From Gammaproteobacteria bacterium (GTDB lineage: Bacteria > Pseudomonadota > Gammaproteobacteria > Steroidobacterales > Foliamicaceae), in contig OZ220729.1 in assembly GCA_965116895.1 (NCBI GenBank), positions 2,344,857-2,408,856 on the forward strand: a DNA stretch of 64,000 nucleotides, written 5' to 3'. Within the stretch, counting starts at the first letter, position 1; each line of letters opens with the position of its first letter. Below, one piece after another: positions 5,925 to 24,492 of the stretch. The position numbers and the translations under genes are program-made. The notes under the pieces were generated by a model that saw only the letters and a list, made by a program, of their open reading frames with translations, had not been told where the DNA came from and did not search any database.

Positions 5925-8153
<2,229 letters not shown>

Positions 8154-8161
8154 TTGCAAGA

Positions 8162-8199: not shown

Positions 8200-8307
8200 C
8201 AACAGTATGGCCAGCTCTTGATCGCCTGGCGCCCGGCCAGTTCTATTCTGAAGTCTTTCGCAACGTCCTTGCGATTCTGCAGCTGTCAACCGAAATACAT
8301 AAGCCCC

Positions 8308-8341
8308 AAAAAAAGCGAGGCGGGCATGTAGCCCGCCTCGC
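8308..8341 (-). terminator. Intrinsic terminator of giant gene A (GCGAGGCGGGC-tacat-GCCCGCCTCGC followed by T7 on the minus strand)
   Basis: 11-bp perfect stem plus a run of 7 T on the transcribed strand, 24 nt after the stop. A near-identical copy is at 17695..17726. Confidence 0.8.
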
Positions 8342-8364
8342 TGCAACGTTAAGTTGCTGTTGGA

Positions 8365-11300
8365 TCAGGCGATATCGAGACCGTCGTCGATCACGAGCAT
8401 GAAGTCTTCGAGCAGGTCCTGTTCGAAGGTGTCCATGTTGTCGACAAAGTCCTCGATGATCCCGCCGAGCGACCCTCCCGGAGGCGGAGGCGGGGCGCCG
8501 CCATCGGTGTCGCCGTCGTTGCTACTGCCGTTTTCATCGTCTTCCCTTTCGTCCGGGTCGGTGGTTTCGTCATCCATCAGGCCGGGCACGTCGGTCGGCG
8601 TCGCAGCCGGCGGTTCGGTAACGTCGCCATTAGCCCTGGTGACATCGGTGACCGTAATCGTGAGCTTGACCGGAGCCGGCGTGGCCAGACCCTCGCTATC
8701 GGTTGCCGTGAGGGTAAGCACGATGGTGGGATCGCGATCGGCATTCTCCACCTCATAGTCCAGCATCGCGCCTGGCTTCAGACGCACCTCCCAGGTGCTG
8801 CCGTCTTTGTCGTCGTCCGTCCTGGTGCCGTTGGCCGCATTGGTGTGGGTGTGCGTGATCATGAACCGATCATCGTCAACAGTGACCGTGTGCGTCCCGA
8901 ACTTGTGCGTCTCGGAGTTCTGATCCTGAACATCCACCCGCGCAATGAACATGCCACCGGGAGGGGCACGCCCAGGAAGCTCGTCAATGTTGATGGCGGC
9001 GGCCGTCGTCCCGGTGCCGTCCGCTGCATTATTGAAGTTGATGCCTGTGGGGGCCACGTTGATCCGGACGTTCACAGCTGCCGTCTGAGCATCCGTGTCA
9101 GAGTTGCTACTACTGCTATTGCCGTCGGGGTCTGTGGCGGTGATATTCAGCGTAATGACGTTGCCCGCGCCATCATCAGCGGGGGTGCCAGAATTGTCGT
9201 GTCCCTGGTAAACGTCACTGTTGTAGGTGAGCTTTCCGGTGCTCGCCTCAAACACCAGCACGCCGCCTGGGGAGTTGGCTCCGTCGAACACATACGTGGT
9301 GCCCGTTACGGTGGGGGTTCCCAAGCCCGAAGCAGAATCCGCAGCAACCGTGTAGGTCAAGCTGGCGCTGTCGGGGTCCTGGAACAGGCTGGCCAGCGGA
9401 ACGATCTCCGTGTGCGAGAGATTGTGTCCCGCTTTGTTGGCGTCGGCGGGCGGGGTCCGGGCCGGCGCGTGTCCGGGAGCGTCGACGCTGATCTCGATAT
9501 TGTGGTCGTCCACCGCGTGTGGAGTAGCGCCCGTCCCTGTCGTGCCGCCGCCAATCGTCTCCCCGTCCGTGGCGACAATCGCCGTCACGCCCGGATTGTC
9601 GTCGTCCGTGCTGCGGTAGGAAACCAGCGCCCGGACCGTATCGCCGGCATGCGCCGACGTGAGGGTCAGGCTTCCGGTGGCGCCAGGAATGTCCACCCAA
9701 TCGGTTCCGATCCGCTCCTGCCACTGCACCGACGTGTCGCGCACGTTGACGCTCAGCGTGCCGCCCGGGAAGGGGTTGCCGGTAATCGTCGGTGCGGTCG
9801 TTGCTCCGTCGGTTACATCGGAAACCTGGATCGCGTCGCTGTAGATGCTCTCCGTCTCCGTACCCGCACGCGTACCGTTCGCGTCGTAGCTCACGACCGC
9901 ACGGTAGTACTTGCCTTTGCCGTCGTCCAGCTCCAGCGTTGCCGTCTCGGTGTCATCTCCCTCGTCCACGGGTTCCCATCCGCCGCGCCCGTTGTCGGAC
10001 ATCTCCCAAGAAACGGTCAGATCAGCCAGGTTCGTGTCCGGCACCAATGCGGGGGAATAATCCCCGTCGGTAATGCGCACATTGACATCCGTAACGCTCA
10101 ATACATTGTTGTCGGCAAGGACCGTGATGCTTCCCGCACCCTTGTCGGGCGTGTCGGTCACCATCCGTGTGGTTGTCGCCTGGTTGAGCACGGTAGTGCT
10201 GGTCGTATCGAATCCGACAAGCTGGCCTGTGGTTCCGGCTGTGGTTGCGTCTGCCCCAACCTCGTAGTACTTGACCTTGACCGTGATGTATTTGTTGACA
10301 TCGGCCTGGGTGAGCGTATAGGAATTGCTGGTGCTCTGACGGAACGGGGTCGTCGCGTCGGACGCATTGGCCTCGTCCCCCCGGAACCACTGGTACAGCA
10401 CCAGCGCGGGCATCGCGTCGCCGCGGAGATCGGGGTCCCTGTCGTCGTTGAAGGTGGCCCGCAACGTGGCACCCTCACGAGCGCTGCCGCTCACCGAGAC
10501 GGCGTTGGTGGGATTCAGGTTCTCGTCGGTGACGGGGACCTTGTAGGTCTTGCTGCCCGTTGCTCCGCGCCTGTCGCTCGCCATGAGCGTGAAGCTGATG
10601 TCGTCGTCCTGGCCATCGTTCCGTCCGGTGCGGTCGATCTCGATGATGACCACCCAATCGTCTAGGGCCGGCGGGGTCGCATCATCGCCGATTACTACGG
10701 CGGTCTGGTCACCCGGGGGGTCGTTCCAGGTCACGTCATCATCTATATCGCCCCATTCATCCGGTCCTTGCAGAATCTTGATCCCGGGACCATCAACATC
10801 CGCCTTGAAGGACCTCACATTCAAATCGTTCTCCGGATCACTCCAGATGTCCTCCAGCTTGATGTACAGGACTTCCTTTTGTCCCTCCGACTGGTTGACG
10901 CCGTAGGGGCCGTGCGTATTGGCGGTGCCAATATCCTCGGCCGTCGGTTTTTCATTAACGGGATCAACGACAACGCGAATATCCTGGGTTCTCGTGGCTC
11001 CCACGCCATCGGTGGCCGTGATCGTGACAATGACCCGATTGATGGTCTCGTGGTTCAAAATTGCTGTCGTGTCGTGGCTGGGGCCGCTCGTGGCCGGATT
11101 CGTGTCCTTGACCAGCAGGTCGTAGGTCCACGTGTCACCGCTCTTCCTGGGCTGGGACAACTGGAAAGCCGATACGTAATCATCATCCGAGTCAGCTGCC
11201 GCAACATCAATAACCAAGTCATCCGTGCCAGCGTCCTGAAAATCGACCACAATTTGTGTAATGGTCACGGTTTCCAGCGCGAACGGATGGTGGCCCAGGT

Positions 11301-13377
11301 CGCTGTCGTCGTCCATAACACTGAACGTAGCGACCCTGCGATCGCCTGAGTTTTCGGGATAATCGAATTCGTTCGGGGTCCCGAACCTCGGTTCATCGCT
11401 GTAGGCGACGGCGTTGGTGCCGTCCCGGGACAGGGCTACGGCCAGCTTGAAGGACGTGGTTACGGTTGCGCCGTCCGGGTCGGTCGCCGTGACGGTGAGC
11501 GTGTGAACACCGCGCACGGGCTCCCCACCCTTGGTGTTGGTGATCATGCCATCCTCGCTGATCTCCAGGAAGGCGGGCCCCCGCAGGGAATAGGTCAGAT
11601 CATCGCCATCGGGATCCCAGAAGGCCCCTTCGCCCGGCATATCGCCAGCTTCCTCCAGCTCGAATGTCAGCCACTCGCCCTTACTCACTTCGTCGGACTG
11701 CTGACCGGACTCGGCGGTGACCCACCAGTTGCCGATCGTGTTGGCTTTGGGCGCATCGTTTTCGTCCTTGATGACGATCGAGACGGTCTGGAACTCGACG
11801 TTACCCGTGAACTTAGTGCCACTGCTGTTCGTCGCGCCGTTCATGTCCACCGCGCGGATGGTGATGTCGACTACCCCGTCATTCGTTTCTTCATCCAGAG
11901 ACATCCCTGCCTTCAGTGCCAACCACGGGATGCCGGCGTCGTCGTACTTGACCTCGAAGCGGTCATCCAGTTGGGCGCTGGGCTTAATACGCTCGCTACT
12001 GACAGGGTTTCCTTTCAATATCTGGATTAGGTGCATGCCGTTTGGATGCATCTTGTGGTCCCTGTCGGTCACCCGGATCTCGCCGAACACCACGCCCGAG
12101 GCATCGTTCTCGTCCACGTCGGCTTCGACGGCGACTCTGCCATTACTGTCGATCAGGTCCACGTCCGTGATGTCGTCGTTGCCGTCGTCCACAATCACGT
12201 AGAAGCTGATCGGGTCCGATTCGGCACCATCGCTGTCGGTGGCGGTAAGGGACACCTTGTGGGCGGCGTCGCTTTCGGTACCGGTAACCGGCGGCGTGCC
12301 GGTGAAGATGCCTTGCGCCGTATCGTTGCCGTCGTCGTCTTCGCCGAATTCGACAGCGAACCTCAACCAGGAAGGCCCGCCGCTCAACTCGTAGCGCACG
12401 GCGCTCGCATCGCCCGCGTCCGGGTCGTTGAACAGCTTGAGCAGATCGATCGCGTTGGGCTTGATGGGCTCGCCGGACTCGGTCGTTATGGCATCGACCG
12501 TTCCGACCGCGACCGGGGCTTCGTTCACGTCCGTGACCATGACCGTTACGTCGGTGCTGGCAGTGTTGCCGGCGCTGTCCGTATAGGTGACGGTGACCGT
12601 GACTTCGCTGTCTTCCTCATGGTCGAGGCTGGCGTCGTCCGCCAGATGCAGCCACAGGCCGTTGGCGGGATCGAGAATGACCTGGAACTTGTCGGCTTGT
12701 TCGCCCGTAATCGATACGGCGGCCTTGCCGGCTTCGCCCTTGAGCATGTCCGCATCGGCGGCGTCCGGATCCATCACCTCGATCAGGGCCAGGGGCGGAA
12801 CGCCCTCGTCGCCCTTCATGGCGTTCTCGGCGATGGTCAGGCTCGATACCGGGCGGCCTTCCGTCGAACCCTCCGCATCGGGCACGGCTTCGCCGTCACG
12901 CACGTCGATGGAGGGGTCTTCGTTGACGTCGTTGACGGTGACGGTGACGGTGGCGGTGGCGGACTCGCCGTCGCCGCTGGCGGTAAGGGTGAGTTCGATC
13001 ATGCCGCCTTCGACGGCCTCGAAGTCGAGGCTCATGCCATCCTTCAGCTTCAGGTTGCCGTCGGCGACTTCGAAGTAGTCGTTATCAACCGTAACTTCGC
13101 TGGAGTTCTCGGTAGTGACTGATGCCACCATGACGCCCTCGTCGTTTTCGTCCACTGCCGAGGCTTCGCCGACCGTGATCGTCGCTGCCGGAGGCGGCGG
13201 CGGAGGTGGAGGCGGAGGCGGTGGAGGCGGAGGAGAAATTCCCCACTGATTTTGCGATCCGCCGTTCAGGCTATAAGGAGCTGATCTGACTAAGGAATGT
13301 TGGTTTTCCTGTTTCTGCCGATTTCTTGCTGAATCACTCGTTTCCGAGAACTTTGTAGTAGCCGAAGTGATACGCAA
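8365..13377 (-). CDS. Giant cadherin/dystroglycan-type repeat protein, copy A (1670 aa as drawn); no signal peptide, doubtful TTG start
   Basis: Collinear with copy B from GGSQ...poly-Pro onward. Repeats carry DVNEDP/DVNEAP/DENDAP linkers and F.DPD.D.LTY...P.WL...GTP units. The N-terminal 47 aa (MRITSATTKFSETSDS...) have no hydrophobic segment, and no SD precedes the TTG. Confidence 0.7.
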   Translation of the reverse strand: MRITSATTKFSETSDSARNRQKQENQHSLVRSAPYSLNGGSQNQWGISPPPPPPPPPPPPPPPAATITVGEASAVDENDEGVMVASVTTENSSEVTVDNDYFEVADGNLKLKDGMSLDFEAVEGGMIELTLTASGDGESATATVTVTVNDVNEDPSIDVRDGEAVPDAEGSTEGRPVSSLTIAENAMKGDEGVPPLALIEVMDPDAADADMLKGEAGKAAVSITGEQADKFQVILDPANGLWLHLADDASLDHEEDSEVTVTVTYTDSAGNTASTDVTVMVTDVNEAPVAVGTVDAITTESGEPIKPNAIDLLKLFNDPDAGDASAVRYELSGGPSWLRFAVEFGEDDDGNDTAQGIFTGTPPVTGTESDAAHKVSLTATDSDGAESDPISFYVIVDDGNDDITDVDLIDSNGRVAVEADVDENDASGVVFGEIRVTDRDHKMHPNGMHLIQILKGNPVSSERIKPSAQLDDRFEVKYDDAGIPWLALKAGMSLDEETNDGVVDITIRAVDMNGATNSSGTKFTGNVEFQTVSIVIKDENDAPKANTIGNWWVTAESGQQSDEVSKGEWLTFELEEAGDMPGEGAFWDPDGDDLTYSLRGPAFLEISEDGMITNTKGGEPVRGVHTLTVTATDPDGATVTTSFKLAVALSRDGTNAVAYSDEPRFGTPNEFDYPENSGDRRVATFSVMDDDSDLGHHPFALETVTITQIVVDFQDAGTDDLVIDVAAADSDDDYVSAFQLSQPRKSGDTWTYDLLVKDTNPATSGPSHDTTAILNHETINRVIVTITATDGVGATRTQDIRVVVDPVNEKPTAEDIGTANTHGPYGVNQSEGQKEVLYIKLEDIWSDPENDLNVRSFKADVDGPGIKILQGPDEWGDIDDDVTWNDPPGDQTAVVIGDDATPPALDDWVVIIEIDRTGRNDGQDDDISFTLMASDRRGATGSKTYKVPVTDENLNPTNAVSVSGSAREGATLRATFNDDRDPDLRGDAMPALVLYQWFRGDEANASDATTPFRQSTSNSYTLTQADVNKYITVKVKYYEVGADATTAGTTGQLVGFDTTSTTVLNQATTTRMVTDTPDKGAGSITVLADNNVLSVTDVNVRITDGDYSPALVPDTNLADLTVSWEMSDNGRGGWEPVDEGDDTETATLELDDGKGKYYRAVVSYDANGTRAGTETESIYSDAIQVSDVTDGATTAPTITGNPFPGGTLSVNVRDTSVQWQERIGTDWVDIPGATGSLTLTSAHAGDTVRALVSYRSTDDDNPGVTAIVATDGETIGGGTTGTGATPHAVDDHNIEISVDAPGHAPARTPPADANKAGHNLSHTEIVPLASLFQDPDSASLTYTVAADSASGLGTPTVTGTTYVFDGANSPGGVLVFEASTGKLTYNSDVYQGHDNSGTPADDGAGNVITLNITATDPDGNSSSSNSDTDAQTAAVNVRINVAPTGINFNNAADGTGTTAAAINIDELPGRAPPGGMFIARVDVQDQNSETHKFGTHTVTVDDDRFMITHTHTNAANGTRTDDDKDGSTWEVRLKPGAMLDYEVENADRDPTIVLTLTATDSEGLATPAPVKLTITVTDVTRANGDVTEPPAATPTDVPGLMDDETTDPDEREDDENGSSNDGDTDGGAPPPPPGGSLGGIIEDFVDNMDTFEQDLLEDFMLVIDDGLDIA
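13189..13233 (-). repeat. Run of 15 consecutive proline codons (CCN)15 in giant gene A
   Basis: Minus-strand codons cct ccg cct cca ccg cct ccg cct cca cct ccg ccg ccg cct ccg were read directly. Confidence 0.95.
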
Positions 13378-13458
13378 TAAAGCGCGTGAGGCGGCGCTCC
13401 GCTTCGTTCGCGCGCCCAGTCAACCGGAAATCTTGCAATAACCGAAGTGATACTCGAA

Positions 13459-14648
13459 TTCCACCTCGGTGAAAAATAGCATCGGCTATTTTCTACCAGA
13501 GTGGAAAATCGCCGTATAATGCTGCGGGTGCCCACCACCGACCGCTACCTCACAGACCAGGTTATTTCCGACCTGGACCGCAAGATGGTGTTTGTCGCCG
13601 GCCCCCGTCAGGTCGGAAAGACCACACTCGCTCTCAGCCTGCCCGGGGCAAGTGAAGGGTACCTGAACTGGGACATTGACGCGCACCGCGCACGCATCCT
13701 CAGAAGCGAACTGCCTCCGGGGGCGTTGTGGATATTCGACGAGATTCACAAGTACAGGCGCTGGCGAAACTATCTCAAGGGCCTGTACGACGGTCGCCCG
13801 CCAGGCCAGCGCATTCTTGTTACCGGCAGCGGGCGGCTGGACCTCTATCGGTTCGGCGGCGATTCGTTGCAGGGACGCTACCATCTGCTGCGTCTGCATC
13901 CGTTCTCGGCGGCGGAGCTCGGGCTGGACCGGCCCGCCATGCTCGAGAACCTTCTCAGGCTGGGAGGCTTTCCGGAACCCTGGCTGTCCGCCAGCGAAAC
14001 GGAATCCAGGCGCTGGTCCCGCGAGTACTCGTCGCGGCTCGTGCAGGAAGAGGTGGCCACACTGGAAAACATTCGGGATCTGGGCCAGCTGCAGTTGATG
14101 ATGCTGTCGCTGCCGGAGCGCGTCGGATCGACGCTCTCGATCAACGCGTTGCGCGAGGATCTGAACGTGAGCCACAAGACCGCCAGCGTATGGCTCGAAG
14201 TCCTGGAGCGCCTCTACGCGATCTTCCGGCTTGCTCCCTTCGGCTCGCCGCAGCTTCGGGCCCTGCGCAAGGACCGCAAGCATTATCACTTCGACTGGTC
14301 GGTCGTTCCCTCGCGCGGAGCGCGCTTCGAGAACCTGGTGGCCTGCCACCTGCTCAAATGGGTGCATTTCCGGCAGGACGCCGAGGGGCTGGACTTCGAA
14401 CTGCGGTATTTCCGGGACCGCGACGGCCGGGAAGTGGATTTCGTGGTGACGAACCGGGGCGCGCCCGTGCTGCTGGTCGAATGCAAGTGGTCGGACGCGG
14501 GCCTCGACCGCGGCCTCAAGTATCTCAAGTCCAGGTTCCCCGACGCCGAGGCCTGGCAGATCTCCGCTGCAGGCAGCAAGGACTACGCCTCCCCGCAGGG
14601 CATACGCGCGGCCCCGGCGCTCAAGTTGCTTTCCACTCTGGTCTAGCG
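13459..14648 (+). repeat. 1.19-kb direct repeat, copy 1 (ATPase gene plus 69 bp upstream)
   Basis: Aligns without net indels to 16501..17690 (constant offset 3042). Homology starts at ttccacctcggtgaaaaatagcatcgg and ends just after the stop codon. Confidence 0.9.
13528..14646 (+). CDS. AAA (AAA_14-like) ATPase with DUF4143-like middle region and PD-(D/E)xK-like C-terminus, copy 1
   Basis: Walker A GPRQVGKTT, Walker B-like LWIFDEIH, C-terminal VDFVV...LLVECKW. Start is set at the GTG shared with copy 2; the ORF track starts at 13501, and ATG 13519 is also in frame. Confidence 0.8.
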   Translation: MPTTDRYLTDQVISDLDRKMVFVAGPRQVGKTTLALSLPGASEGYLNWDIDAHRARILRSELPPGALWIFDEIHKYRRWRNYLKGLYDGRPPGQRILVTGSGRLDLYRFGGDSLQGRYHLLRLHPFSAAELGLDRPAMLENLLRLGGFPEPWLSASETESRRWSREYSSRLVQEEVATLENIRDLGQLQLMMLSLPERVGSTLSINALREDLNVSHKTASVWLEVLERLYAIFRLAPFGSPQLRALRKDRKHYHFDWSVVPSRGARFENLVACHLLKWVHFRQDAEGLDFELRYFRDRDGREVDFVVTNRGAPVLLVECKWSDAGLDRGLKYLKSRFPDAEAWQISAAGSKDYASPQGIRAAPALKLLSTLV

Positions 14649-14740
14649 GGCGGGACGCCGTGGGGGACATGCCCCCACTCCCAGGCCGCAGGCTTTACTG
14701 CGAAAACGTCAGTGAGTTGGCAGGTCGGCACGCACCAGTC

Positions 14741-14769
14741 TTGACTCATTTGCATACAAAAGGCAATAT
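14741..14769 (+). promoter_or_regulatory. Candidate sigma70 promoter for hipBA (TTGACT-17nt-CAATAT)
   Basis: Hexamers read directly in an AT-rich stretch about 45 nt upstream of the hipB ATG. Confidence 0.4.
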
Positions 14770-14810
14770 ATGGCCTATAAAGTTATATATCGGGTTTCAA
14801 CAGGCCAGAT

Positions 14811-15164: not shown

Positions 15165-16458
15165 TGCCACCGTAAGACTGTGGGGACGGCGTATCGGTGC
15201 TGTGTCCTGGGATGCCGGGCGCGGCGTTGGCGTGTTCCAGCACGACCCCGCCTTCGCGGCAGCCGGGATAGAACTTGCCCCTTTTGCCATGCCGGCCCGT
15301 GAGGCGCCGTATGAGTTTCCGGCCTTGGGACGTGACGCGTTCAAGGGACTGCCCGGGCTGCTGGCGGACGCACTGCCGGACGACTTCGGCAACCGGCTGA
15401 TCAACGTCTGGCTCGCGACGACCGGACGGCGCATGGAGGATTTCAGTCCGGTCGACCGGCTCTGCTACATAGGTTCGCGCGGCATGGGCGCTCTCGAGTT
15501 CGAGCCCGCAATTGCGCGGAGCGGCAAGGATGGGGAAGTGGAAGTCGCGGAGCTGGTGGATCTGGCGAATCGCGTATTGAGGTCCCGAACGCAGCTTCAT
15601 GGCGCGTTGGACGGAATCGACGATCATGCCGCGCTCGAAGACATCCTCACCGTGGGAACATCGGCCGGCGGCGCCCGCGCCAAGGCTTTGCTGGCCTGTA
15701 ACCCCGGAACCGGAGAGTTCCGGTCCGGCCAGGTCGAGACGAAAAAGGGATTCGAGCACTGGATTCTCAAGTTTGACGGGGTCAGTAACAACCGCGATCG
15801 GGAACTTGCCGACCCGCAGGGCTACGGAAAGATCGAGTACGCCTATCACCGGATGGCGCAAGATGCCGGGATCGCGATGTCGGAGTGCCGGTTGTTCCAC
15901 GAAGGCGGCCGCAGCCATTTCATGACCCGCCGGTTCGACCGCGACGCGGAGGGCCGCAAGATCCACATGCAGTCACTCGGCGCGCTACGGCATTTCGACT
16001 ACTACCAGCCCGGCGCCTATGCCTACGAACAGGCAATGGAAACGATTCACCGGCTGGGGCTGGGAATGGCCGCGGTGGAACAGCAGTATCGGCGCACGGT
16101 GTTCAACATTGCGGCCCGCAACCAGGATGATCACGTGAAGAACATCTCGTTCTTGATGACACCCGACGGCAAGTGGACGCTGTCTCCGGCCTACGACGTT
16201 GCCTACTCCTACAATCCCGGCGGCTCCTGGACCGGCAAGCACCAGATGAGCGTTGTCGGCAAGCAGGACAATTTCGAGCGCAGCGACCTGCTGCAGTTCG
16301 CCCATTCATCCGGAATCAAGGCGGTGGCCGCAAACCGGATTACCAACGACGTGATCGCAGCGGTGGCGGACTGGCCACGGCACGCCAGGGACGTCGGCGT
16401 CCCGCAAGGCGACATTCGCCGGATCGGCGCAACACACAGAACCAAGGTACTGGCGTGA
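15157..16458 (+). CDS. hipA: HipA-family serine/threonine kinase toxin
   Basis: 433 aa from GTG 15157, in the frame of ORF 14977..16458. The catalytic-loop motif DDHVKNISF matches the HipA DxHxKN signature. The N-terminal coupling region is LWGRRIGAVSWD. Confidence 0.85.
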   Translation: MTDATVRLWGRRIGAVSWDAGRGVGVFQHDPAFAAAGIELAPFAMPAREAPYEFPALGRDAFKGLPGLLADALPDDFGNRLINVWLATTGRRMEDFSPVDRLCYIGSRGMGALEFEPAIARSGKDGEVEVAELVDLANRVLRSRTQLHGALDGIDDHAALEDILTVGTSAGGARAKALLACNPGTGEFRSGQVETKKGFEHWILKFDGVSNNRDRELADPQGYGKIEYAYHRMAQDAGIAMSECRLFHEGGRSHFMTRRFDRDAEGRKIHMQSLGALRHFDYYQPGAYAYEQAMETIHRLGLGMAAVEQQYRRTVFNIAARNQDDHVKNISFLMTPDGKWTLSPAYDVAYSYNPGGSWTGKHQMSVVGKQDNFERSDLLQFAHSSGIKAVAANRITNDVIAAVADWPRHARDVGVPQGDIRRIGATHRTKVLA

Positions 16459-16500
16459 AGACGCTGCCGATGCCGATCCAGCTACTGTGCATCGGCGTTT

Positions 16501-17690
16501 TTCCACCTCGGTGAAAAATAGCATCGGCAATTATCTACCGGAGTCGAATATTGCCGTATAATTCGGCGCGTGCCCACCACCGACCGCTACCTCACAGAAC
16601 AGGTTCTTGCCGACCTGGACCGCAAGATGGTGTTCGTGGCCGGCCCCCGGCAGGTGGGCAAGACCACCCTCGCGCTGAGCCTGCCCGAGGCGCAGGCAGG
16701 CTACCTGAACTGGGACATTGACGCGCACCGCGCGCGCATCCTCAGGAACGAACTGCCTCCGGGCGCGTTGTGGGTATTCGACGAGATTCACAAGTACAGA
16801 CGCTGGCGCAACTACCTCAAGGGCCTGTACGACGGCCGCCCGCCGGGCCAGCGCATTCTTGTTACCGGCAGCGGGCGGCTCGACCTCTACCGGTTCGGCG
16901 GCGATTCGTTGCAGGGTCGCTACCATCTGCTGCGCCTGCATCCGTTCTCGGCGGCGGAGCTCGGGCTGGACCAGCCCGCCATGCTCCAGGATCTTCTCCG
17001 GCTGGGAGGCTTTCCGGAGCCCTGGCTGACCGCCAGCGAAACGGAATCCAGGCGCTGGTCGCGCGAGTATTCGACGCGGCTTGTGCAGGAAGAGGTGGCC
17101 ACGCTGGAAAACATTCGCGATCTGGGTCAGCTGCAGCTGATGATGCTGTCGCTGCCGGAGCGCGTGGGATCGACGCTCTCGATCAACGCGCTGCGCGAGG
17201 ACCTCAACGTGAGCCACAAGACCGCCAGTGCATGGCTCGAAATCCTGGAGCGGCTGTACGCGATCTTCCGGCTTGCCCCGTTCGGCTCACCGCAGCTTCG
17301 GGCCCTGCGCAAGGACCGCAAGCACTATCACTTCGACTGGTCGGTCGTTCCCTCGCGCGGCGCGCGCTTCGAGAACCTGGTGGCCTGCCATCTGCTCAAG
17401 TGGGTGCATTTCCGGCAGGACGCCGAGGGGCTGGACTACGAACTGCGGTATTTCCGGGACCGCGACGGCCGGGAAGTGGATTTCGTCGTGACGAACCGGG
17501 GCGCGCCCGTGCTGCTGGTCGAATGCAAGTGGTCGGACGCGGACCTCGACCGCGGCCTCAAGTATCTCAAGTCCAGGTTTCCCGACGCCGAGGCCTGGCA
17601 GATTTCCGCCGCAGGCAGGAAAGACTACGCTTCGCCGCAGGGCATACGCGCGGCCCCGGCGCTGAAGTTGCTTTCGACTCTGGTCTAGGG
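16501..17690 (+). repeat. 1.19-kb direct repeat, copy 2
   Basis: See 13459..14648. Confidence 0.9.
16570..17688 (+). CDS. AAA/DUF4143-like ATPase with PD-(D/E)xK-like C-terminus, copy 2
   Basis: 372 aa, with about 18 amino-acid differences from copy 1 counted by eye. Same Walker A and ECK motifs. Confidence 0.85.
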   Translation: MPTTDRYLTEQVLADLDRKMVFVAGPRQVGKTTLALSLPEAQAGYLNWDIDAHRARILRNELPPGALWVFDEIHKYRRWRNYLKGLYDGRPPGQRILVTGSGRLDLYRFGGDSLQGRYHLLRLHPFSAAELGLDQPAMLQDLLRLGGFPEPWLTASETESRRWSREYSTRLVQEEVATLENIRDLGQLQLMMLSLPERVGSTLSINALREDLNVSHKTASAWLEILERLYAIFRLAPFGSPQLRALRKDRKHYHFDWSVVPSRGARFENLVACHLLKWVHFRQDAEGLDYELRYFRDRDGREVDFVVTNRGAPVLLVECKWSDADLDRGLKYLKSRFPDAEAWQISAAGRKDYASPQGIRAAPALKLLSTLV

Positions 17691-17694
17691 GCGC

Positions 17695-17726
17695 AAAAAA
17701 ACGAGGCGGGCATATAGCCCGCCTCG
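17695..17726 (-). terminator. Intrinsic terminator of giant gene B (CGAGGCGGGC-tatat-GCCCGCCTCG followed by T7)
   Basis: 10-bp stem plus T-run on the minus strand, 25 nt after the stop. Homologous to 8308..8341. Confidence 0.8.
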
Positions 17727-17751
17727 CTGCAACGTTAAGTTGCGGGGGTGG

Positions 17752-20700
17752 TTATGCGATCTCGATTCCGTCGTCGATCACGAGCATGAAGTCTTCGAGC
17801 AGATCCTGTTCGAAGGTGTCCATGTTGTCAACGAAGTCCTCGATGATTCCGCCGAGCGACATTCCCGGAGGCGGAGGCTGGGTGCCGCCGTCGGTGTCGG
17901 TGTCGTCGCCATCTACCACCTCGTTGTCGTCAGTACCGTCGTTGTCCCTCAGGCCCGGCACGTCGTTCGGCGTCGGCGTGACGTCGTCAGTCGTGTCGTT
18001 GTCGACCGTGATGGTAATTGTGATCGGCGTTGTCGGCGTGCTCAGGCCGCCACCGTCCGTGGCTGTCAGCGTGAGCACGATGGTGGGATTGCGATCGGCA
18101 TTTTCCGCCTCGTAGTCCAGCTTCGCGCCCGGCTTCAGGCGTATCTCCCAGGTGCTGCCATCCATGTCGGTATCCCTCGAATTGGGGAGCCCGGTGTACC
18201 CGGTGTGCGTGATCATGAACCGGTCGTCGCCCGAGAGCGTGACCTCATGGGTTCCGAACTCGTGCGAGCCCATGTTCTCGTCCTGAACATTCACATGGGC
18301 AATGAGCTGGCCGGCAGGCCTGGCGGCCGAGCCGGTCCCTGGGATCTCATCCACCATGAGATTGAAGGTGCCATTCGTTCCATCGCCGTTGGTTGCTGCG
18401 TCAACAGCACCATCGGAAGCAGCGAAGAAGATGTCGGTCGGAGCCACGTTGATCCGGACGTTCACATCGGCCGTGCCTGTGCGTGCGCCTTCGTCGGTGG
18501 CGGTTACGGTCAGCGTAATGATGTTGCCTGTGCCGTCGGTACGCGTGCCATCGTGGCCCTGGTAAACGTCACTGTTGAAGGTGAGCTTTCCGGTGCTCGC
18601 TTCAAACGTCAGCACACCACCATCGTTTTCGTAGACATACGTGCTGCCCGATCCGCTGTTGGTCGGGGAGTTCGTAACTGCCGTGACCGTGTAGGTCAAA
18701 CGCGCGCTGTCGGGATCCTGGAACAGGCTGGCCAGCGGAACGATCTCCTCGTGCGAGAGGTTGTGCCCCGCCTCGATGGCGGTGCCCCGGGCGGGGTGCC
18801 CGGGAGCGGCCACGCTGACTTCGATGTCGTGGTCGTCCACGCCGGTCGGAGTAGCGGTGCCCGCCGTGGTGCCGCCAATCGGCGTTCCGCCGTTGGCGGC
18901 AACCGCAACTACCGCCGTCACGCCCGGATTGTTGTCATCCGTACTGTGGTAGGAGACCAACGCCCGGATCACCTTGCCGGCATGCGCCGAGGTGACGTTC
19001 AGGCTGCCGGTGGCGCCCGGAATGTCCACCCAATCCGTACCGCGCTGCTCCTGCCATTGCGTCGATGTGTTGCGCACGTTGACGCTCAGCGTGCCGCCCG
19101 GGAAGGGGTTGCCGGTGATCGTGGGTGCGGTCCCTGCAGTGTCGCGCACGTCGGCGACCTGGATCGCATCGCTGTAGACGCTCTCCATCTCCTCGTCGGC
19201 AGCGTCCACGTCAGGATCATCGACCCCGTCCGCGTCGTAGCTCACGACTGCGCGGTACCACTTGCCTTTGCCGTCGTCCAGTTCCAGCGTTGACGTCTCG
19301 GTGTCACCCTCCTGGTCCACGGCTTCCCATCCGCCGCGTCCGTTGTCGGAGATCTCCCAGGAAACGGTTATACCGGTCAGGCCGCTGTCCGCCACCAGGC
19401 CGCCCGGGGTGGAATAATCCCCGTCGGTGATGCGCACATTGACATCCGTAACGCTCAATACATTGGCGTCGGCAAGGACCGTGACGCTTCCCACACCCTT
19501 GTCGGGCGTGTCGCTCACGGCCCGCAGGGTGGTGGCCTCGTTGTCGATCGTGGCCGTATCGAGTCCGACGAGCTGGTTACCGAAGACTTCGTAGTACTTC
19601 ACCTTCACGGTGATGTAACTGCCGACATCGGCCTGGGTCAGCTGGTAGGCACTGCTGGTGCCCTGACGGACCAGGGCCTCTCCGGTGCCGGCGTCGTCCT
19701 CCGCCCGGTACCACTGGTAGATCACCAGTGCGGGTGTGGTGGAGCCGCCGAGGTCGGGGTCCCTGTCGTCGTTGAAGCTGGCCCGCAACGTGGCGTCCTC
19801 ACGAGCGGCGCCACTTAGCGTGACGGCGTTCGTGGGATTCAGGTTCTGGTCGGTGACCGGCACCCTGTAGGTCATGGTGCCCGTTCCGCCGTCCCGGTCG
19901 GTCGCGTTGATCGTGAAGCTGCCCATGGCGCCCTGATCATTGTTCCTTCCGGTGCGGTCGAGCTCGATGATCAGCACCTGTTCGCCGTCGGCCGGAGCGT
20001 CCGCATCGTCGCCAATGATTACGGCGGTCCGATTGGCCTGGCCCGTATCGCCGATGTCAGTGTCGCCCCAGGTCACGTTCTCCAGATCGCCCCACTCGGC
20101 CGGGCCGTGCAGAATCGAGACCCAGGAGCCGCTAACCGACGCCGTGAAGGTCAAACGATCCGAAGCGTCCTCCTCATCGGTCCAGATGTCCTCCAGCTTG
20201 ATGTACAGGATTTCCTTCAGCGTCTCCGACTGGCCGACGCCGTAGTCTCCGGACCCAATATTGAAATCGGTTTCAACGGCTTGAGTAGCGGGGTTGTCGG
20301 CAATACCTTCAGCCATCGGCCGGTCGTTCACATCGTCAATATCGACTGCGATTTCTTCGGTGTAAGTGTCGGGCTCGGTGTCCGTGTCGGGCCCGTCTAT
20401 GCCGTCAGTGGCCGTGACCGTGACCGTGATCCGATTGATGGTCTCGTAGTCCAGAAGTTCCGTCGTGTCAACGCGCGGGCTCGGGTTCGTGTCCTTGACC
20501 AACAGGTCGTAGGTCCACGTGTTGCCGCTCTTCCTTGGCTCGGACAGCCGGAACGCCGATACGTAGTCCGCAGTCTGGTTAGCTGCCGTGACAGCAATCG
20601 TCTGGTCTGTCGTGCCGCTGTCCCGGAAATCGACCACAATTTGCGTAATGGTCACGGAGTCCAGCGCGAACGGGTGGTGGCCAAGGCTGTTGTCGTCGTC

Positions 20701-22782
20701 CCTGATCGTGAACGTGGCGACTACCTGATCGCCCGAATTTTCCTCGTAGTCGCGTTCGTTCGGGTTGCCGAACCTCGGCGCCTCGTTGTCGTTGTCGGCG
20801 GTCTCGTCGGTGCCGTCGCCGGACAGGGCCACTGCCAGATTGAAGGTAGCGGACGCCGATGCGCCGTCCGGGTCGGTGGCCGTGACGGTGAGGCGATGAA
20901 CGCCGCGCACGGGCAGTCCGCCCTTGGTGTTGGTGATCTCGCCGGTCCGCTCATTGATCTCCAGCCAGGAGGGACCCGACAAGGAGTAGGTGAGCGTATC
21001 GTTATCGGGATCGGTGAACGCCGGCTTGGCATCGTCCGTATCCTCGATGAAGAATCTCAGCCAGGCGCCTTTTTCCACGTCATCGGCCTGCTGACCGCCC
21101 TCGGCGGTGACCCACCAGTTGCCGATCGTGCCGGCCTTGGGCGCGTCGTTCTCGTTGTTGATTACGATCGAGACGGTCTGGAACTCGACGTTGCCCAGGA
21201 AAGCCGTTCCGCGGGGGTTCGTCGCGCCGTTCATGTCCACCGCACGGATGGTCACTTCGACGGCGCCGGGTGAGGTCCGATCCTCGAAATCGAGGGACTC
21301 GCCTTCCTTCAGCACCAGCCAGGGGATGCCCAGGTCGTCGTACTTGACTTCGAAGCGGTCATCCACCGGGGCGTTGGGAGCCTCGCTCCTGGAGTCCCCT
21401 TTCAGTATCTGGATCAGGTGCGTCCCGTTCGGATGCATGGCGTGGTCCTGGTCCGTCACCCGGATCTCGCCGAACACCACGCCCGAGTCGTCGTTCTCGT
21501 CCACGTCCGCTTCGACGGCCACGTTGCCGGCGTCGTCGATCAGGTCAACGTCGGTGATGGCGTCGTTGCCGTCGTCCACGATCACGTAGAAGCTCACGGA
21601 GCCTTCCTCGCCGCCGCTGTCGGTGGCGGTAAGGGTCACCATGTGAGCGGCGTCGCTGTCGGGGCCGGTGGTGGGCGGCGTGCCCGAGAAGATGCCCATC
21701 GTCGTATCGTTGCCGTCGTCGTCCTCGCCGAACTCGACGCTGAATGTCAGCCACGAAGGCCCGCCACTCATTTCGTAGCGCACGGCGTTGGAATCGCCGG
21801 CATCCGGATCGTTGAACAGCGCGAGCAGATCGATCGGGTTGGGCTTGATTTCCACGCCGGACTCGGTGGTTATGGGATCGACCATGCCGACCGCGACCGG
21901 GGGTTCGTTTACGTCATTGACCATGACCGTAACGGTCTGTTCGGCCGTGTTGCCGGCGCTGTCCGTATAGGTGACGGTGACCATGACCTCATCGTCGGCC
22001 TCGTGGTCGAGGCTGGCGCCTTCGGCCAGGTGCAACCACAGGCCGTTCTCGGGATCGAGGATCACGGCAAACTTGTCCGCTTGCTCGCCGGTAATCGAAG
22101 TGGCGGCCACGCCGGCATCGCCGGTGAGCATGTCCGCATCGGCGGCGTCCGGGTCCATCACCCTGATCAGGGCCAAAGGCGGAGGACCGCCGTCGCCCCG
22201 CATGGCGTTCTCGTCGACCGTCAGGTTCGAGATCACGCCCGGATGTCCGGGAACTTCTCCGCCCTCATCGCCGTCGAGTACTTCAATGGAAGGCGCTTCG
22301 TTGACGTCGTTGACGGTGACCGTCACCATGGCGGTGGCGGATTCGCCGTCGCCGCTGGCGGTAAGGGTAAGTTCGATCATTCCGCCTTCGACGTTTTCGA
22401 AGTCGAGGCTCATGCCGTCCTTGAGCTTCAGGTTGCCGTCGGCGACCTCGAAGTAGTCGTTGTCAACCGTAACTTCGCTGGCGTTTTCGGTGGTAACCAT
22501 AGCCACCATGGCGCCATCGTCGTTTTCGTCCACTGCCGAGGCTTCGCCCACCGTGATCGTCGCTGCCGGAGGCGGCGGCGGAGGGGGAGGCGGAGGCGGA
22601 GGAGGCGGAGGAGGCGGAGGTGGTGTGGGCCTTTGCGACCCACCGCCTCCGCAGGCATCCAGCGCGAGCGCCAGCGCGGGCAGAATGAGAATATCCGTGC
22701 GAGACGGATTTTCCCGGCGCCGGCGTATCGCCCTTTCAAGGCGCGCCTGCAAGAGTTGAATTACGGTTCCTGATTTAGACAT
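17752..22782 (-). CDS. Giant cadherin/dystroglycan-type repeat lipoprotein, copy B (1676 aa)
   Basis: ATG is preceded by AAGGAGG (22791..22797). Signal ILILPALALALDAC has a lipobox and is followed by 19 Pro. Cadherin-like linkers DVNEAP, DVNEPP, NENDAP and DVNDRP are present, and the protein ends in an acidic C-terminal tail. Confidence 0.85.
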   Translation of the reverse strand: MSKSGTVIQLLQARLERAIRRRRENPSRTDILILPALALALDACGGGGSQRPTPPPPPPPPPPPPPPPPPPPAATITVGEASAVDENDDGAMVAMVTTENASEVTVDNDYFEVADGNLKLKDGMSLDFENVEGGMIELTLTASGDGESATAMVTVTVNDVNEAPSIEVLDGDEGGEVPGHPGVISNLTVDENAMRGDGGPPPLALIRVMDPDAADADMLTGDAGVAATSITGEQADKFAVILDPENGLWLHLAEGASLDHEADDEVMVTVTYTDSAGNTAEQTVTVMVNDVNEPPVAVGMVDPITTESGVEIKPNPIDLLALFNDPDAGDSNAVRYEMSGGPSWLTFSVEFGEDDDGNDTTMGIFSGTPPTTGPDSDAAHMVTLTATDSGGEEGSVSFYVIVDDGNDAITDVDLIDDAGNVAVEADVDENDDSGVVFGEIRVTDQDHAMHPNGTHLIQILKGDSRSEAPNAPVDDRFEVKYDDLGIPWLVLKEGESLDFEDRTSPGAVEVTIRAVDMNGATNPRGTAFLGNVEFQTVSIVINNENDAPKAGTIGNWWVTAEGGQQADDVEKGAWLRFFIEDTDDAKPAFTDPDNDTLTYSLSGPSWLEINERTGEITNTKGGLPVRGVHRLTVTATDPDGASASATFNLAVALSGDGTDETADNDNEAPRFGNPNERDYEENSGDQVVATFTIRDDDNSLGHHPFALDSVTITQIVVDFRDSGTTDQTIAVTAANQTADYVSAFRLSEPRKSGNTWTYDLLVKDTNPSPRVDTTELLDYETINRITVTVTATDGIDGPDTDTEPDTYTEEIAVDIDDVNDRPMAEGIADNPATQAVETDFNIGSGDYGVGQSETLKEILYIKLEDIWTDEEDASDRLTFTASVSGSWVSILHGPAEWGDLENVTWGDTDIGDTGQANRTAVIIGDDADAPADGEQVLIIELDRTGRNNDQGAMGSFTINATDRDGGTGTMTYRVPVTDQNLNPTNAVTLSGAAREDATLRASFNDDRDPDLGGSTTPALVIYQWYRAEDDAGTGEALVRQGTSSAYQLTQADVGSYITVKVKYYEVFGNQLVGLDTATIDNEATTLRAVSDTPDKGVGSVTVLADANVLSVTDVNVRITDGDYSTPGGLVADSGLTGITVSWEISDNGRGGWEAVDQEGDTETSTLELDDGKGKWYRAVVSYDADGVDDPDVDAADEEMESVYSDAIQVADVRDTAGTAPTITGNPFPGGTLSVNVRNTSTQWQEQRGTDWVDIPGATGSLNVTSAHAGKVIRALVSYHSTDDNNPGVTAVVAVAANGGTPIGGTTAGTATPTGVDDHDIEVSVAAPGHPARGTAIEAGHNLSHEEIVPLASLFQDPDSARLTYTVTAVTNSPTNSGSGSTYVYENDGGVLTFEASTGKLTFNSDVYQGHDGTRTDGTGNIITLTVTATDEGARTGTADVNVRINVAPTDIFFAASDGAVDAATNGDGTNGTFNLMVDEIPGTGSAARPAGQLIAHVNVQDENMGSHEFGTHEVTLSGDDRFMITHTGYTGLPNSRDTDMDGSTWEIRLKPGAKLDYEAENADRNPTIVLTLTATDGGGLSTPTTPITITITVDNDTTDDVTPTPNDVPGLRDNDGTDDNEVVDGDDTDTDGGTQPPPPGMSLGGIIEDFVDNMDTFEQDLLEDFMLVIDDGIEIA
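22567..22623 (-). repeat. Run of 19 consecutive proline codons (CCN)19 in giant gene B
   Basis: Codons were read directly; one further Pro lies two codons upstream (P-T-P19). Confidence 0.95.
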
Positions 22783-22821
22783 GAGCCTGCCTCCTTACCG
22801 AGCAAGTTCAATTGGTTGAAA
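22628..22821 (-). repeat. 5' module of giant gene B (leader, SD, ATG, signal peptide, lipobox), repeat copy 1
   Basis: Aligns at constant offset 305 with 22933..23126. Roughly 9 of 10 positions are identical by eye. Confidence 0.85.
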
Positions 22822-22907
22822 AGGTAGTGATGGTTAGAGTGATAACCATACTGATAAACGTTTCAAATAATTCCGAAAAAAGCCTTATAAGTCAGTTTAT
22901 TAAGCAA

Positions 22908-23087
22908 TTAACTCCAATTCGGAGGAGGAGTCGGCCTTTGCGACCCGCCGCCTCCGCAGGCGTCCAGCGCGATCGCCAGCGCGGGCAGGATAAGAATATC
23001 CGCACGCGATGGGTTTTCCCGGCGCCGGCGTATCGCCCCTTCTAGGCGAGCCTGCAAGAGTTGAATTACGGTTCCTGACTTAGACAT
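22908..23087 (-). pseudogene. Orphan 5' fragment of a giant-adhesin gene (59 codons: signal peptide, lipobox, GGGGSQRPTPPP, then stop)
   Basis: Hand translation gives MSKSGTVIQLLQARLEGAIRRRRENPSRADILILPALAIALDACGGGGSQRPTPPPNWS*. It has the same SD (AAGGAGG) as gene B. It is below the ORF-track length cutoff. Confidence 0.75.
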
Positions 23088-23126
23088 GAGCCTGCCTCCT
23101 TACCGAGCAAGTTCAATTGGTTGAAA
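22933..23126 (-). repeat. 5' module, repeat copy 2 (orphan)
   Basis: See 22628..22821. Both copies end at the dyad TTCAAttggTTGAA. Confidence 0.85.
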
Positions 23127-23448
23127 TGTGGTCGAGCCCTCCCGGGCGGAATGACGCAATAGTATAACTCCGTGACCTGTCAAGCAAGCCATCGGGCGAA
23201 TTATAGGGCACACACCTTTCCGATGTATAGACGAATCTATAAGTGAATCGACACTTCCCCGGAACGGGGCCCCAAAATCGATCACACCGGTTTGCCGCTT
23301 CACCCGACTAACCGGCCGTGGCCTAGTGAGTGCTGCATTTTCCCCCCCGATCGCCGGATCTCCATAAGGAATTCCAGGATCATTCTGGTCTCGTTGGCAC
23401 GATTCTACACGAAAGAAAGCGCGCAAGTCATTCATTTTTTCAAAAGTT

Positions 23449-24492
23449 TCAGCCTGCCCGGAATCGCAGCACGTCGCCGTCGCGGACTTCGTAATCGCGC
23501 CCCTTGAGGGCGGGAAGGGCTTGCGGGGCGGCGCTGAAGGCCTCCCAGGGCGTGACTTCGGCGCGCACGAAGCGCTGCTGGAAATCGGTGTGTACGCGGC
23601 CCGCGGCGTGGTGCGCGGTGGCGCCGTTGGGGATCAGCCAGGCGCGGGCCTCGGACGGGCCCGCGGTGAAGAAGGTATTGAGGTTCAGGAGGGTGCGTAG
23701 CGCCTGCATGAAGCGCTGGAAGGTTTCGTGCGGAAGGCCGAGTCCCTGGCGCAGGTCCTGCTGCTCTTCTTGCGGCAGTGCGGCGAGCTCGGACTCGAGC
23801 TCGGCGGTGACGCGAACGGCGGGTTTGCCCTGTTGTGCGGCATATTCCTCGGCGAGGTCCGCCGGACCGCCCGTTGCGATGTGTTCTTCGGCCACGTTGA
23901 GCGCGTAGAGCGTGGGTAGTGCGGTGAGGAGTGGGAGGGCGGACGTCTCGTCGTTCGTGGAGGGCGGGACGCCCTCGCTCCCAAGGTGGTTGTGGAGCTC
24001 TTCGAGCTCTTCGACGCGCTTTTTCAGGTCGGGGTGGCCGGACTTGGCGCGGCGGCGGGCGGAGTCCAGCGCGCGCTCGACGGTTGCGAGGTCGGCCAGC
24101 GCCAGTTCGGTGTTGACGGTCTCGGCGTCATCGACCGGATCGACGGCGCCGGCGACGTGCGTGACGCGCCCGGATTCGAAGCAGCGCAGCACGTGCACCG
24201 CGGCGTCGGCCTCGCGCACCTGGGCCAGGAAGCGGTTGCCCAGGCCCTCGCCGCGCGACGCGCCCTTCACCAGGCCGGCCACGTCCACGAGCTCGAGCGT
24301 GGCCCGGACCTTGCGCTGCATCCCTGCGGCTTGCGCCACCGCATCCAGCCGCGGATCGGGGATGGGCACCCGCGCGACGTTCGGATCGATGGTGCAGAAG
24401 GGCCGGTTCTCGGTGGGGACTTCGGCGGCGGCCAGTGCGTTGAAGAGCGTGGACTTGCCGACGTTGGGCAGCCCGATGATCGCGGCCTTCAC
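23449..24492 (-). CDS. ychF: Ribosome-binding ATPase YchF
   Basis: VKAAIIGLPNVGKSTLFNAL (P-loop) from GTG 24492. C-terminal TGS-like end DGDVLRFRAG. The ORF-track N-terminal extension overlaps pth and is not used. Confidence 0.9.
   Translation of the reverse strand: MKAAIIGLPNVGKSTLFNALAAAEVPTENRPFCTIDPNVARVPIPDPRLDAVAQAAGMQRKVRATLELVDVAGLVKGASRGEGLGNRFLAQVREADAAVHVLRCFESGRVTHVAGAVDPVDDAETVNTELALADLATVERALDSARRRAKSGHPDLKKRVEELEELHNHLGSEGVPPSTNDETSALPLLTALPTLYALNVAEEHIATGGPADLAEEYAAQQGKPAVRVTAELESELAALPQEEQQDLRQGLGLPHETFQRFMQALRTLLNLNTFFTAGPSEARAWLIPNGATAHHAAGRVHTDFQQRFVRAEVTPWEAFSAAPQALPALKGRDYEVRDGDVLRFRAG
23960..23982. repeat. REP-like GC-rich hairpin element GAGGGCG-gga-CGCCCTC-GCTCCC, located inside the ychF CDS
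   Basis: 23-nt match to 39490..39512 with one mismatch. Related copies are at 48814..48856, 53251..53297 and 61762..61782. Confidence 0.7.

Follow-up and report, generated by a model that had tools for sequence, protein, structure and literature searches.

The 64,000-nt stretch analysed here (contig OZ220729.1 of the Gammaproteobacteria bacterium assembly GCA_965116895.1, positions 2,344,857 to 2,408,856), hereafter the window, carries two related giant genes, A and B. Gene B is a minus-strand open reading frame (ORF; 17752..22782) encoding a cadherin-like protein of 1,676 aa with a pI of 4.05 and 18% Asp+Glu. Gene A (8365..13233, -) is, by comparison with B, a full-length paralog without a start codon or leader, which runs for 1,622 codons from a polyproline tract and is a putative silent cassette. 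An earlier note, made from the letters of this DNA, had described in B an unusual combination of a lipoprotein-type leader, a polyproline stalk and an acidic tail resembling the signals of type I secretion system (T1SS) substrates. This combination is real and conserved, although the leader is found only on expression-site copies and is not shared by every member of the family. The note had overlooked gene A, the absence of a leader on it, and a truncated leader duplicate upstream of B (22908-23087). The start-less full-length copy beside B suggests a system that swaps an exposed surface protein.

The ATG of gene B stands 8 nt downstream of a perfect AGGAGG Shine-Dalgarno (SD) sequence (preceding sequence TAAGGAGG). 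The protein begins with MSKSGTVIQLLQARLERAIRRRRENPSRTD-ILILPALALAL-DAC-GGGGSQRPT, followed by 19 Pro codons (22567-22623). Both the strong SD and the run of 19 prolines had been reported correctly. The leader, residues 1-43 (22654..22782, -), consists of a 30-aa basic n-region with seven Arg/Lys in residues 1-28, an 11-residue core ILILPALALAL with a Kyte-Doolittle mean of 2.9, and LDA before Cys44. It therefore has the basic n-region and the stretch of 7-22 hydrophobic residues before the Cys that are expected of a lipoprotein signal. Cys44 (22651..22653, -), the putative lipidation site, is the sole cysteine of B, is followed by GGGGS and is invariant among all leader-bearing homologs seen. 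The lipobox L-D-A-C is non-canonical, with Asp at -2 and the Cys at 44, so that [LVI][ASTVI][GAS]C within ~35 residues is not found and the PROSITE-type pattern matches B only with position -2 left free. Leu at -3 and Ala at -1 would presumably suit signal peptidase I equally well. Against NCBIfam, the leader gave only a sub-threshold match to NF058595 'invert_tail' (19.7 bits against 37), and no literature on that model was found.

The (CCN)19 polyproline tract (22567..22623, -) is the putative stalk and also the in-frame junction of leader and body, since leaderless copies start there. Directly 3' of the stalk, at residues 73-76 of B (22555-22566, -), most family members carry Pro-Ala-Ala-Thr/Val-Ile; we take this dialanine to resemble the LapG cleavage motif of LapA-type adhesins.

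The body (17890..22566, -) is built of tandem cadherin-like, He_PIG and Ig-like beta-sandwich domains, as judged by Pfam, AlphaFold and Foldseek. Pfam Cadherin (PF00028) matched three stretches of B (E=5e-26, 91 bits, cut-off 28.8) and He_PIG (PF05345) two (E=2.6e-13, 50.6 bits, cut-off 24), the best of which covers residues 587-651. The domain search proposed in the earlier note thus returned Cadherin for its cadherin hallmarks and He_PIG for its dystroglycan-type units. The motifs that it quoted were located at residues 159 (DVNEAP), 290 (DVNEPP), 543 (NENDAP) and 817 (DVNDRP), and cadherin-type DxNDxxP-like and DPD motifs stand at the domain ends. AlphaFold modelled residues 73-410 as three tandem beta-sandwiches with a mean predicted local distance difference test score (pLDDT) of 88. 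The top 50 Foldseek matches of this model in the PDB were all protocadherins, cadherins, desmosomal cadherins or CELSR1 (E 1e-13 to 1e-11), the best being ectodomains of protocadherin, cadherin-23, desmocollin and C-cadherin (E ~1e-13, probability 1.0). A PDB sequence search with the whole B protein gave no match. The protein is probably calcium-binding.

The last 45 aa of B (17755..17889, -) form an acidic tail, which is a putative T1SS signal and, by its conservation, a 3' constant block. The tail is as the earlier note quoted it, with a net charge of -11, and ends in DDGIEIA. Of the 120 homologs listed, almost every one shares the C-terminal end ...DxDGGxPPPPGMSLGGIIEDFxDNMDxxEQDLLEDFxLxIDDG(I/L)D(I/M)(A/V/L), and a minority of them have the alternative end ...MDAMMMSTLDDGLF. 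A tail-variant subfamily (P0037, P0047, P0053-P0055, P0058, P0083, P0085, P0095 and P0120) ends in ...DGGA..PSMDAMMMSTLDDGLF with a final Phe. AlphaFold gave the last 150 aa a pLDDT of 54 and the tail itself less than 50, with no predicted secondary structure; modelling of the tail, as had been proposed, therefore yielded no fold to compare. A search with the tail alone returned 11 short fragments only and was uninformative on other architectures. A pattern scan found zero RTX GGxGxDxUx nonapeptides in B, and the NCBIfam sorting-signal models (PEP-CTERM and similar) did not match it, in agreement with what had been read from the sequence. Gene B is followed by an intrinsic terminator with a 12-bp stem and a T run (17700..17728, -). 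It is kept after every family copy, and comparison of copies placed the same hairpin after gene A (8314..8342, -). An Rfam scan of 7900-24000 gave only a sub-threshold SorX match on the terminator.

Genes A and B share ~76% nucleotide identity overall, in blocks of 75-90%, and have the same tail. Gene A opens with a 15-codon polyproline tract; the sequence upstream of this tract is unrelated to the leader and holds no SD-preceded start. Seven leader-bearing and 13 full-length leaderless copies were classified in the fetched loci (numbered L001 onwards). The leader-bearing copies are B and those of L001, L002, L003, L005, L009 and L010. All seven have an ATG 53 codons before the tract and an AGGAGG match at 5-6 of 6 positions. 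The leaderless copies are gene A, five on a related complete contig, two in L004, and one each in L005, L006, L011, L012 and L051. Every one of the 13 starts exactly at an in-frame (CCN)11-23 tract, with in-frame stops 1-62 codons upstream, and an SD-preceded in-frame start upstream of the tract was found in 0/13. Their ORFs stay open for 1,590-1,790 codons. The promoter region, SD, ATG and leader are confined to one or two loci per genome. Two features of a cassette system were thus found, namely few expression sites with multiple start-less copies, and conserved blocks (identity profile, 5' flank, tail with terminator) around a variable region.

The 5' flank of gene A (13234..13460, -), delimited by comparison, contains a 20-nt direct repeat in two copies (13353-13372 and 13433-13452) with a spacing of 80 bp, followed by ATCAGC..CTTATAGCC and then by GGGGAATT directly before TCT-(CCN)n. 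Such a flank of ~230-250 bp, comprising the repeats TATCACTTCGGCTAYTACAA at a fixed 80-bp spacing, ATCAGCGCCTTATAGCC and GGGGAATT, precedes every leaderless copy and was seen upstream of leaderless copies in L001, L004, L006-L009 and L051. No sigma-70-like promoter was found in the flank. Structured RNA in it is unsupported, since the consensus structure reached -8.4 kcal/mol with almost no covariation.

The expression site of B lies downstream of ychF. A conserved region of ~270 bp upstream (23126..23400, -), which includes a promoter-like TATACA-18-TATAAT at 23229..23200, was recognised by alignment and promoter scan and aligns with the leader-bearing loci L001, L002, L005 and L009. The truncated leader duplicate (22908..23087, -), 305 bp upstream of B, is a 59-codon upstream ORF with its own SD and the end ...QRPTPPPNWS*. 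By comparison, it is separated from the start of B by an AT-rich spacer of ~85 nt with a T-run (22822..22907, -). This structure is kept in a related genome (L009) and absent at the single-leader sites L001 and L005; similar truncated leader fragments are P0254 and P0255. The truncated leader may be a scar left by recombination, or it may act in regulation as an upstream ORF containing a proline stall. A 9.7-kb insertion between the leader fragment and gene A, with CTCCTCCG as target duplication, was dropped as the main explanation because the leader-fragment structure and the cassette flank recur in other genomes.

The arrangement is more extensive on the 3.19-Mb contig of a related genome, which is ~84% identical to the window at the nucleotide level in L25-pth-ychF. 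There, ychF is followed by the upstream region with the leader-bearing expression copy, two leaderless copies, a toxin-antitoxin pair with an AAA_14 gene, two leaderless copies, a toxin-antitoxin pair, one inverted leaderless copy, an integrase and, last, a hybrid histidine kinase and a T1SS operon. The leader copy and the five leaderless copies lie within ~37 kb after ychF. This genome has two leader copies against at least five leaderless copies and one partial copy. Its second leader copy lies elsewhere, and L001 14749-17733 then holds the terminator, the cassette flank and the partial cassette, which retains the tail but is missing the polyproline tract and ~930 codons at its 5' end.

The compared pairs of copies gave a ratio of nonsynonymous to synonymous substitution (dN/dS) of 0.26-0.44 at dS 0.33-1.26; for A and B, dN/dS was 0.43 and dS 0.48. 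With these ratios and ORFs open for ~1,600 codons or more, the leaderless copies are not dead, unlike neutral pseudogenes. Along the gene, nucleotide identity among 13 copies was 78-80% in the first 360 nt, 71-79% in the last 240 nt and 52-67% between. At the syntenic ychF site, three genomes have the same leader on very different bodies, B and P0111 being 34% identical. Gene B is collinear with the expression copy of the relative for ~2 kb only and is then closest to the other leader copy of that genome (86%). In two strains whose T1SS DNA is 97% identical, the adjacent cassette is 87% identical over the 5' 2.1 kb, at most 70% over the next 2.7 kb and 83-93% in the tail region. The mosaic breakpoints in these two independent comparisons both lie ~2 kb into the body. 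Bodies are thus mosaic between the compared genomes and appear to have been exchanged.

A database search returned 337 homologs, mostly of 1,500-2,200 aa. Those that carry a source name are labelled 'MAG: Gammaproteobacteria bacterium' (MAG, metagenome-assembled genome), and a few were binned to other phyla. Their bin and sample names (COS2_bin_9, SB0673_bin_2, ROBB21, NGUY21) resemble those of sponge studies, so the homologs apparently come from sponges. This agrees with a published finding that sponge MAGs are rich in cadherin genes, which are reported to move laterally among them (PMC8163846). The host association raised in the earlier note is accordingly plausible. In the few entries whose called product includes the N-terminus, the leader is near-invariant on bodies that are 34-58% identical. 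An exhaustive phmmer search with the leader alone, run against 1.84 billion representative proteins, gave six hits, all from the same family or fragments of it, which marks the leader as specific to this family and not as a sorting signal of general use. Most of the inspected database entries start just after the polyproline tract. P0001 is a gene-caller truncation, and many others are genuinely leaderless. Surveys of symbiont surface proteins that are based on signal peptides therefore miss them. Scans of genome and metagenome contigs identified only five true family loci, the remainder being distant cadherin proteins.

A T1SS operon lies near family members in related lineages. On the related complete contig, a 596-aa ATP-binding cassette (ABC) transporter and an AprE-type adaptor stand ~8 kb from the last cassette. 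Three further loci (L051, L052 and L054) carry the whole operon at a distance of 2-9 kb from a family member; two of them belong to lineages whose ABC transporter shares just 82-84% identity. The operon comprises a conserved ORF of 87-89 aa, the ABC transporter, the adaptor and a TolC-like outer-membrane efflux protein. The transporter belongs to TIGR01842, type_I_sec_PrtD (673 bits, NCBIfam cut-off 510), and the adaptor to TIGR01843, type_I_hlyD (356 bits, cut-off 209). The lineages with a T1SS near family members are L007/L054, L051 and L052, and the copy nearest to the T1SS in L051 and L007 is leaderless. A T1SS ABC transporter of 79% identity is named Candidatus Foliamicus sp. The 87-89-aa ORF (MSDTKIFVDGLM...QANGGTAT) lies directly before the ABC gene in L007 (2215-2478, -), L051 (9448-9714), L052 (9639-9908) and L054 (9674-9937), and matched no Pfam or NCBIfam family. 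Distant cadherin proteins of other metagenomes (L018, L041, L026 and L022) also have adjacent PrtD-like ABC and adaptor genes. Their ends (..ALDLV, ..YFDLV, ..YLDTII and ..EGVVI) combine an acidic residue with 2-4 hydrophobic ones, and the family endings DIA, DIV, DIL and DMV fit the same pattern.

T1SS substrates carry an uncleaved C-terminal signal of ~60 residues, are usually encoded near the exporter gene and have no N-terminal signal; adhesins of the cadherin type are documented among them (PMC3034196). The channel of PrtD is narrow, its entry window is strongly basic, and its substrates are taken up unfolded from the cytoplasm (PMC8277102). The basic window suits a tail of charge -11, and the low AlphaFold confidence and absence of secondary structure fit an unfolded signal. 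The simplest reading of the tail is therefore a T1SS signal and not the new terminal docking peptide of the earlier note; we take this reading as more likely than not, though more tentatively for this genome. That note had found no T1SS genes, which is true of the window and not of the neighbourhood of family members in three related lineages. It had also held that a documented T1SS signal in the tail, together with a lipobox not conserved among homologs, would overturn its tethering proposal; a cognate-looking exporter does exist, yet the leader is strongly conserved. B departs from the usual substrate in having a signal-peptide-like leader at its N-terminus. The leaderless copies have none, but they also have no start codon.

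The space between B and A is occupied by two AAA_14/DUF4143 ATPase genes and a hipBA module. One ATPase gene (13501..14646, +; Pfam) diverges from the flank of A, and the same arrangement is seen in L008 (8363-9610). The second copy (16570..17688, +) is convergent with B and belongs with the first to repeat family D1, with 89% identity at the 5' end. Possible traces of the AAA_14 5' end were seen upstream of several other cassette flanks. The gene may be part of the ancestral repeat unit or have a role in recombination. Toxin-antitoxin modules lie among or next to cadherin copies, namely hipBA in the window (14811-16458, +) and PIN/DUF6364, PemK and PIN/MazE in relatives (L008 7571-8254 and 21361-21950; L002 6305-6924). 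A gene for a hybrid GAF-PAS histidine kinase/receiver/Trans_reg_C protein stands at the distal end of the array, both in the window (2581-4935, +) and in L007 (6292-8553) and L054 (6827-9088). The hybrid kinase gene of the related contig is ~68% identical to that of the window over 1.2 kb of nucleotides. The kinase could regulate the adhesin or the T1SS. A leucine-rich repeat (LRR) protein is encoded at 163-2490 (-); the public record places its start at the GTG at 2490, not at that of the longer mechanical ORF, and it has a canonical lipobox, ..SLALVGC, followed by GGG. An HNH/DUF222 endonuclease gene (33445-35073, +) lies between an SNF transporter gene and rpoA, and a homologous gene of HNH/DUF222 type (L052 5517-7076) lies in the mobile DNA that separates a cadherin copy from the T1SS.

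We propose that B is an expressed giant adhesin of the T1SS type, that its locus is an expression site served by silent full-length cassettes, and that the leader and polyproline tract act as an anchor. We hold this proposal, taken as a whole, with even confidence. The expression module consists of the ~270 bp of upstream DNA, the AGGAGG SD, the ATG and the 43-aa leader up to the sole cysteine. Leaderless copies, here gene A, would be silent cassettes that come to be expressed after recombination has linked them to the leader module. Crossing-over would take place in or near the repetitive polyproline-coding tract, (CCN)10-23, and the conserved tail and terminator would serve as 3' homology. 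Switching would vary the exposed adhesin, as in the vls and vsa systems. The unstructured acidic tail would act as an uncleaved T1SS signal, recognised by the PrtD/HlyD/TolC machinery encoded beside the arrays in related genomes. In the weakest step of the proposal, the leader, the Cys, GGGGS and a polyproline-II stalk of ~6 nm would form an N-terminal retention anchor of the extruded rod and play the role of the LapA-type retention module. Both the switching and the export route of B are what we infer from these comparisons. In its boldest form, which we regard as rather unlikely, a sponge mutualist would have programmed surface variation, with the constant module fused within the (CCN)n tract to any of several archived 5-kb cassettes, hybrid and so far undescribed PrtD export with the C-terminus first, and the lipidated or hydrophobic leader with its rigid stalk as a retention plug or anchor. 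The product would be a T1SS adhesin that is lipid-anchored and antigenically variable.

Several points weigh against this proposal. No switching event between the expression site and the cassettes was observed in the assembled genomes compared, and none of the pairs among nine copies shares a tract of at least 97% identity over at least 150 nt; no such tract links copies of one genome, so there is no sign of recent duplicative conversion. Because the cassettes are mostly directly oriented, simple reciprocal exchange would delete DNA. The window contains no dedicated recombinase, and the integrase near the arrays of relatives looks like that of a P4-type island. Conservation of the tail could result from protein function alone. 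On the export side, no T1SS genes were found in the window, where Pfam searches of the larger ORFs gave only an RND pump and tblastn with the related T1SS ABC transporter and membrane fusion protein gave no match, or in the 3.2 kb adjoining it on the left. In topological terms, a cleavable Sec-type leader is hard to combine with the PrtD route from the cytoplasm to the outside, and the lipobox of B fails the standard pattern.

As an alternative, B could be an ordinary lipoprotein adhesin that crosses the inner membrane by Sec, is lipidated at Cys44, is sorted by Lol and is tethered by its polyproline stalk. The tail would then be a functional peptide, such as a ligand, a host-docking helix or a folding element, and the neighbouring T1SS would serve other substrates. 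The leader, with its basic n-region, 11-residue h-region and single invariant Cys before GGGGS, agrees with such a route, as does the LRR protein of the window, whose canonical LALVGC lipobox is also followed by GGG. Further points in its favour are the lack of a T1SS in the window and the 3.2 kb beyond it, the mobile DNA that always separates the T1SS from the arrays in relatives, and the awkward topology of Sec combined with a PrtD-type T1SS (PMC8277102). However, the T1SS linkage recurs in three lineages, and the C-terminus of B matches the acidic and hydrophobic ends of T1SS-linked cadherin proteins. A pI of 4, the lack of any cysteine besides Cys44 and a tail without predicted structure also speak against it, Asp at -2 and a Cys at 44 break the lipobox rule, and an outer-membrane route for a 170-kDa lipoprotein is not evident. 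We consider a purely Sec/Lol-exported B rather unlikely.

The two remaining alternatives concern the leaderless copies. They may not be silent at all, if weak internal starts after the polyproline tract yield free adhesins secreted by the T1SS, with the leader copy as the cell-anchored isoform. In favour of this, an N-terminal signal is absent from T1SS substrates in general (PMC3034196), and the adjacent T1SS has a leaderless copy as its nearest neighbour in L051 and L007. Purifying selection has kept the leaderless copies intact, every one of them ends in a terminator of its own and follows a conserved flank in which an unrecognised promoter could hide, and gene callers annotate internal starts after the tract. 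Against this, there is no conserved candidate start, the SD matches reach only 3-5 of 6 positions, and the same internal codons occur in leader copies. The polyproline tract is kept in frame in 13/13 copies, which would be needless if translation started downstream, the flank has no sigma-70-like promoter, and a partial cassette without the 5' half exists. We judge such independent expression unlikely. A very improbable explanation is that the leaderless copies arose by unequal crossing-over in the slippery (CCN)n tract, dead on arrival, with the flank as original downstream intergenic DNA and no variation system at all. A tandem duplication with its breakpoint in the polyproline tract would automatically give a leaderless copy preceded by what had been downstream DNA; in both the window and L008 the AAA_14 gene directly adjoins the flank, and no recent conversion tracts were found. 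Yet 13 copies at dS 0.5-1.26 are still open for ~1,600 codons with dN/dS of 0.33-0.44, gene ends are conserved while centres are variable, bodies are mosaic between strains, and different bodies occur at the same expression site.

The proposed expression site with silent cassettes appears closest in logic to vlsE/vls and to the vsa system of Mycoplasma pulmonis. In Borrelia burgdorferi vlsE/vls, likewise, a lipoprotein-type leader is present only at the expression site, and contiguous cassettes without start or promoter have conserved ends and variable centres (PMC4534519; PMC2632889). The cadherin cassettes differ in being full-length, ~5 kb long, mostly in direct orientation, and equipped with their own terminator and a flank of ~230-250 bp. 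Segmental conversion was not observed among them, the protein has a T1SS-like tail, and the host is apparently a sponge and not a vertebrate with adaptive immunity. In M. pulmonis vsa and M. agalactiae vpma, one site also provides the promoter and N-terminal DNA, which are joined in frame to silent genes lacking the 5' end (PMC4534519; PMC2268961). Those systems use site-specific inversion by a dedicated recombinase, whereas here the junction is (CCN)n, the copies are mostly direct repeats, and no dedicated recombinase was identified. The sapA/sapB S-layer gene family of Campylobacter fetus is comparable to the proposed system in its cluster of full-length homologous cassettes with a conserved 5' region, one promoter and an adjacent T1SS that acts through a C-terminal signal. 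Each sap homolog, however, keeps its start codon and N-terminus, switching occurs by promoter inversion, and there is no signal peptide, lipobox or polyproline tract.

Among giant T1SS adhesins, those of the LapA, MpIBP and FrhA type match the proposed form of B: their acidic rods are made of Ig-like or cadherin-like repeats, their C-terminal T1SS signal stays uncleaved, and the N-terminus retains them at the cell surface (PMC3034196; PMC10990149). The family of B differs from the LapA type in having no RTX nonapeptides or folded retention domain, a Sec-type or lipobox-like leader and a polyproline stalk instead, and multiple copies with start-less members. Export of a protein with a Sec signal through an ABC/adaptor/TolC-type machine is known from Aat/dispersin and MacAB-TolC (PMC8277102). 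Those pumps are of the MacB type and carry small periplasmic cargo, whereas the linked transporter here is of the PrtD type (TIGR01842), which threads unfolded cytoplasmic substrates. The literature searches made for cassette systems in sponge symbionts or 'Foliamicus' yielded no description of such an arrangement.

Cadherin genes of sponge symbionts are known to be enriched and laterally transferred (PMC8163846). The family described here lends itself to testing whether a Sec/lipobox-type leader and a T1SS signal could function together on a single polypeptide, and it bears on how T1SS adhesins are retained. What makes the cassette arrangement interesting is that one would not expect it in a mutualist whose animal host has no adaptive immunity. 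Should the start-less copies serve as an archive, a giant adhesin would be varied in sponge symbionts by the expression-site and cassette strategy of pathogens. Possible pressures are recognition by host phagocytes, phage receptors and competition between strains. If this is true, surface variation in an early-branching animal symbiosis would be directly testable with long reads.

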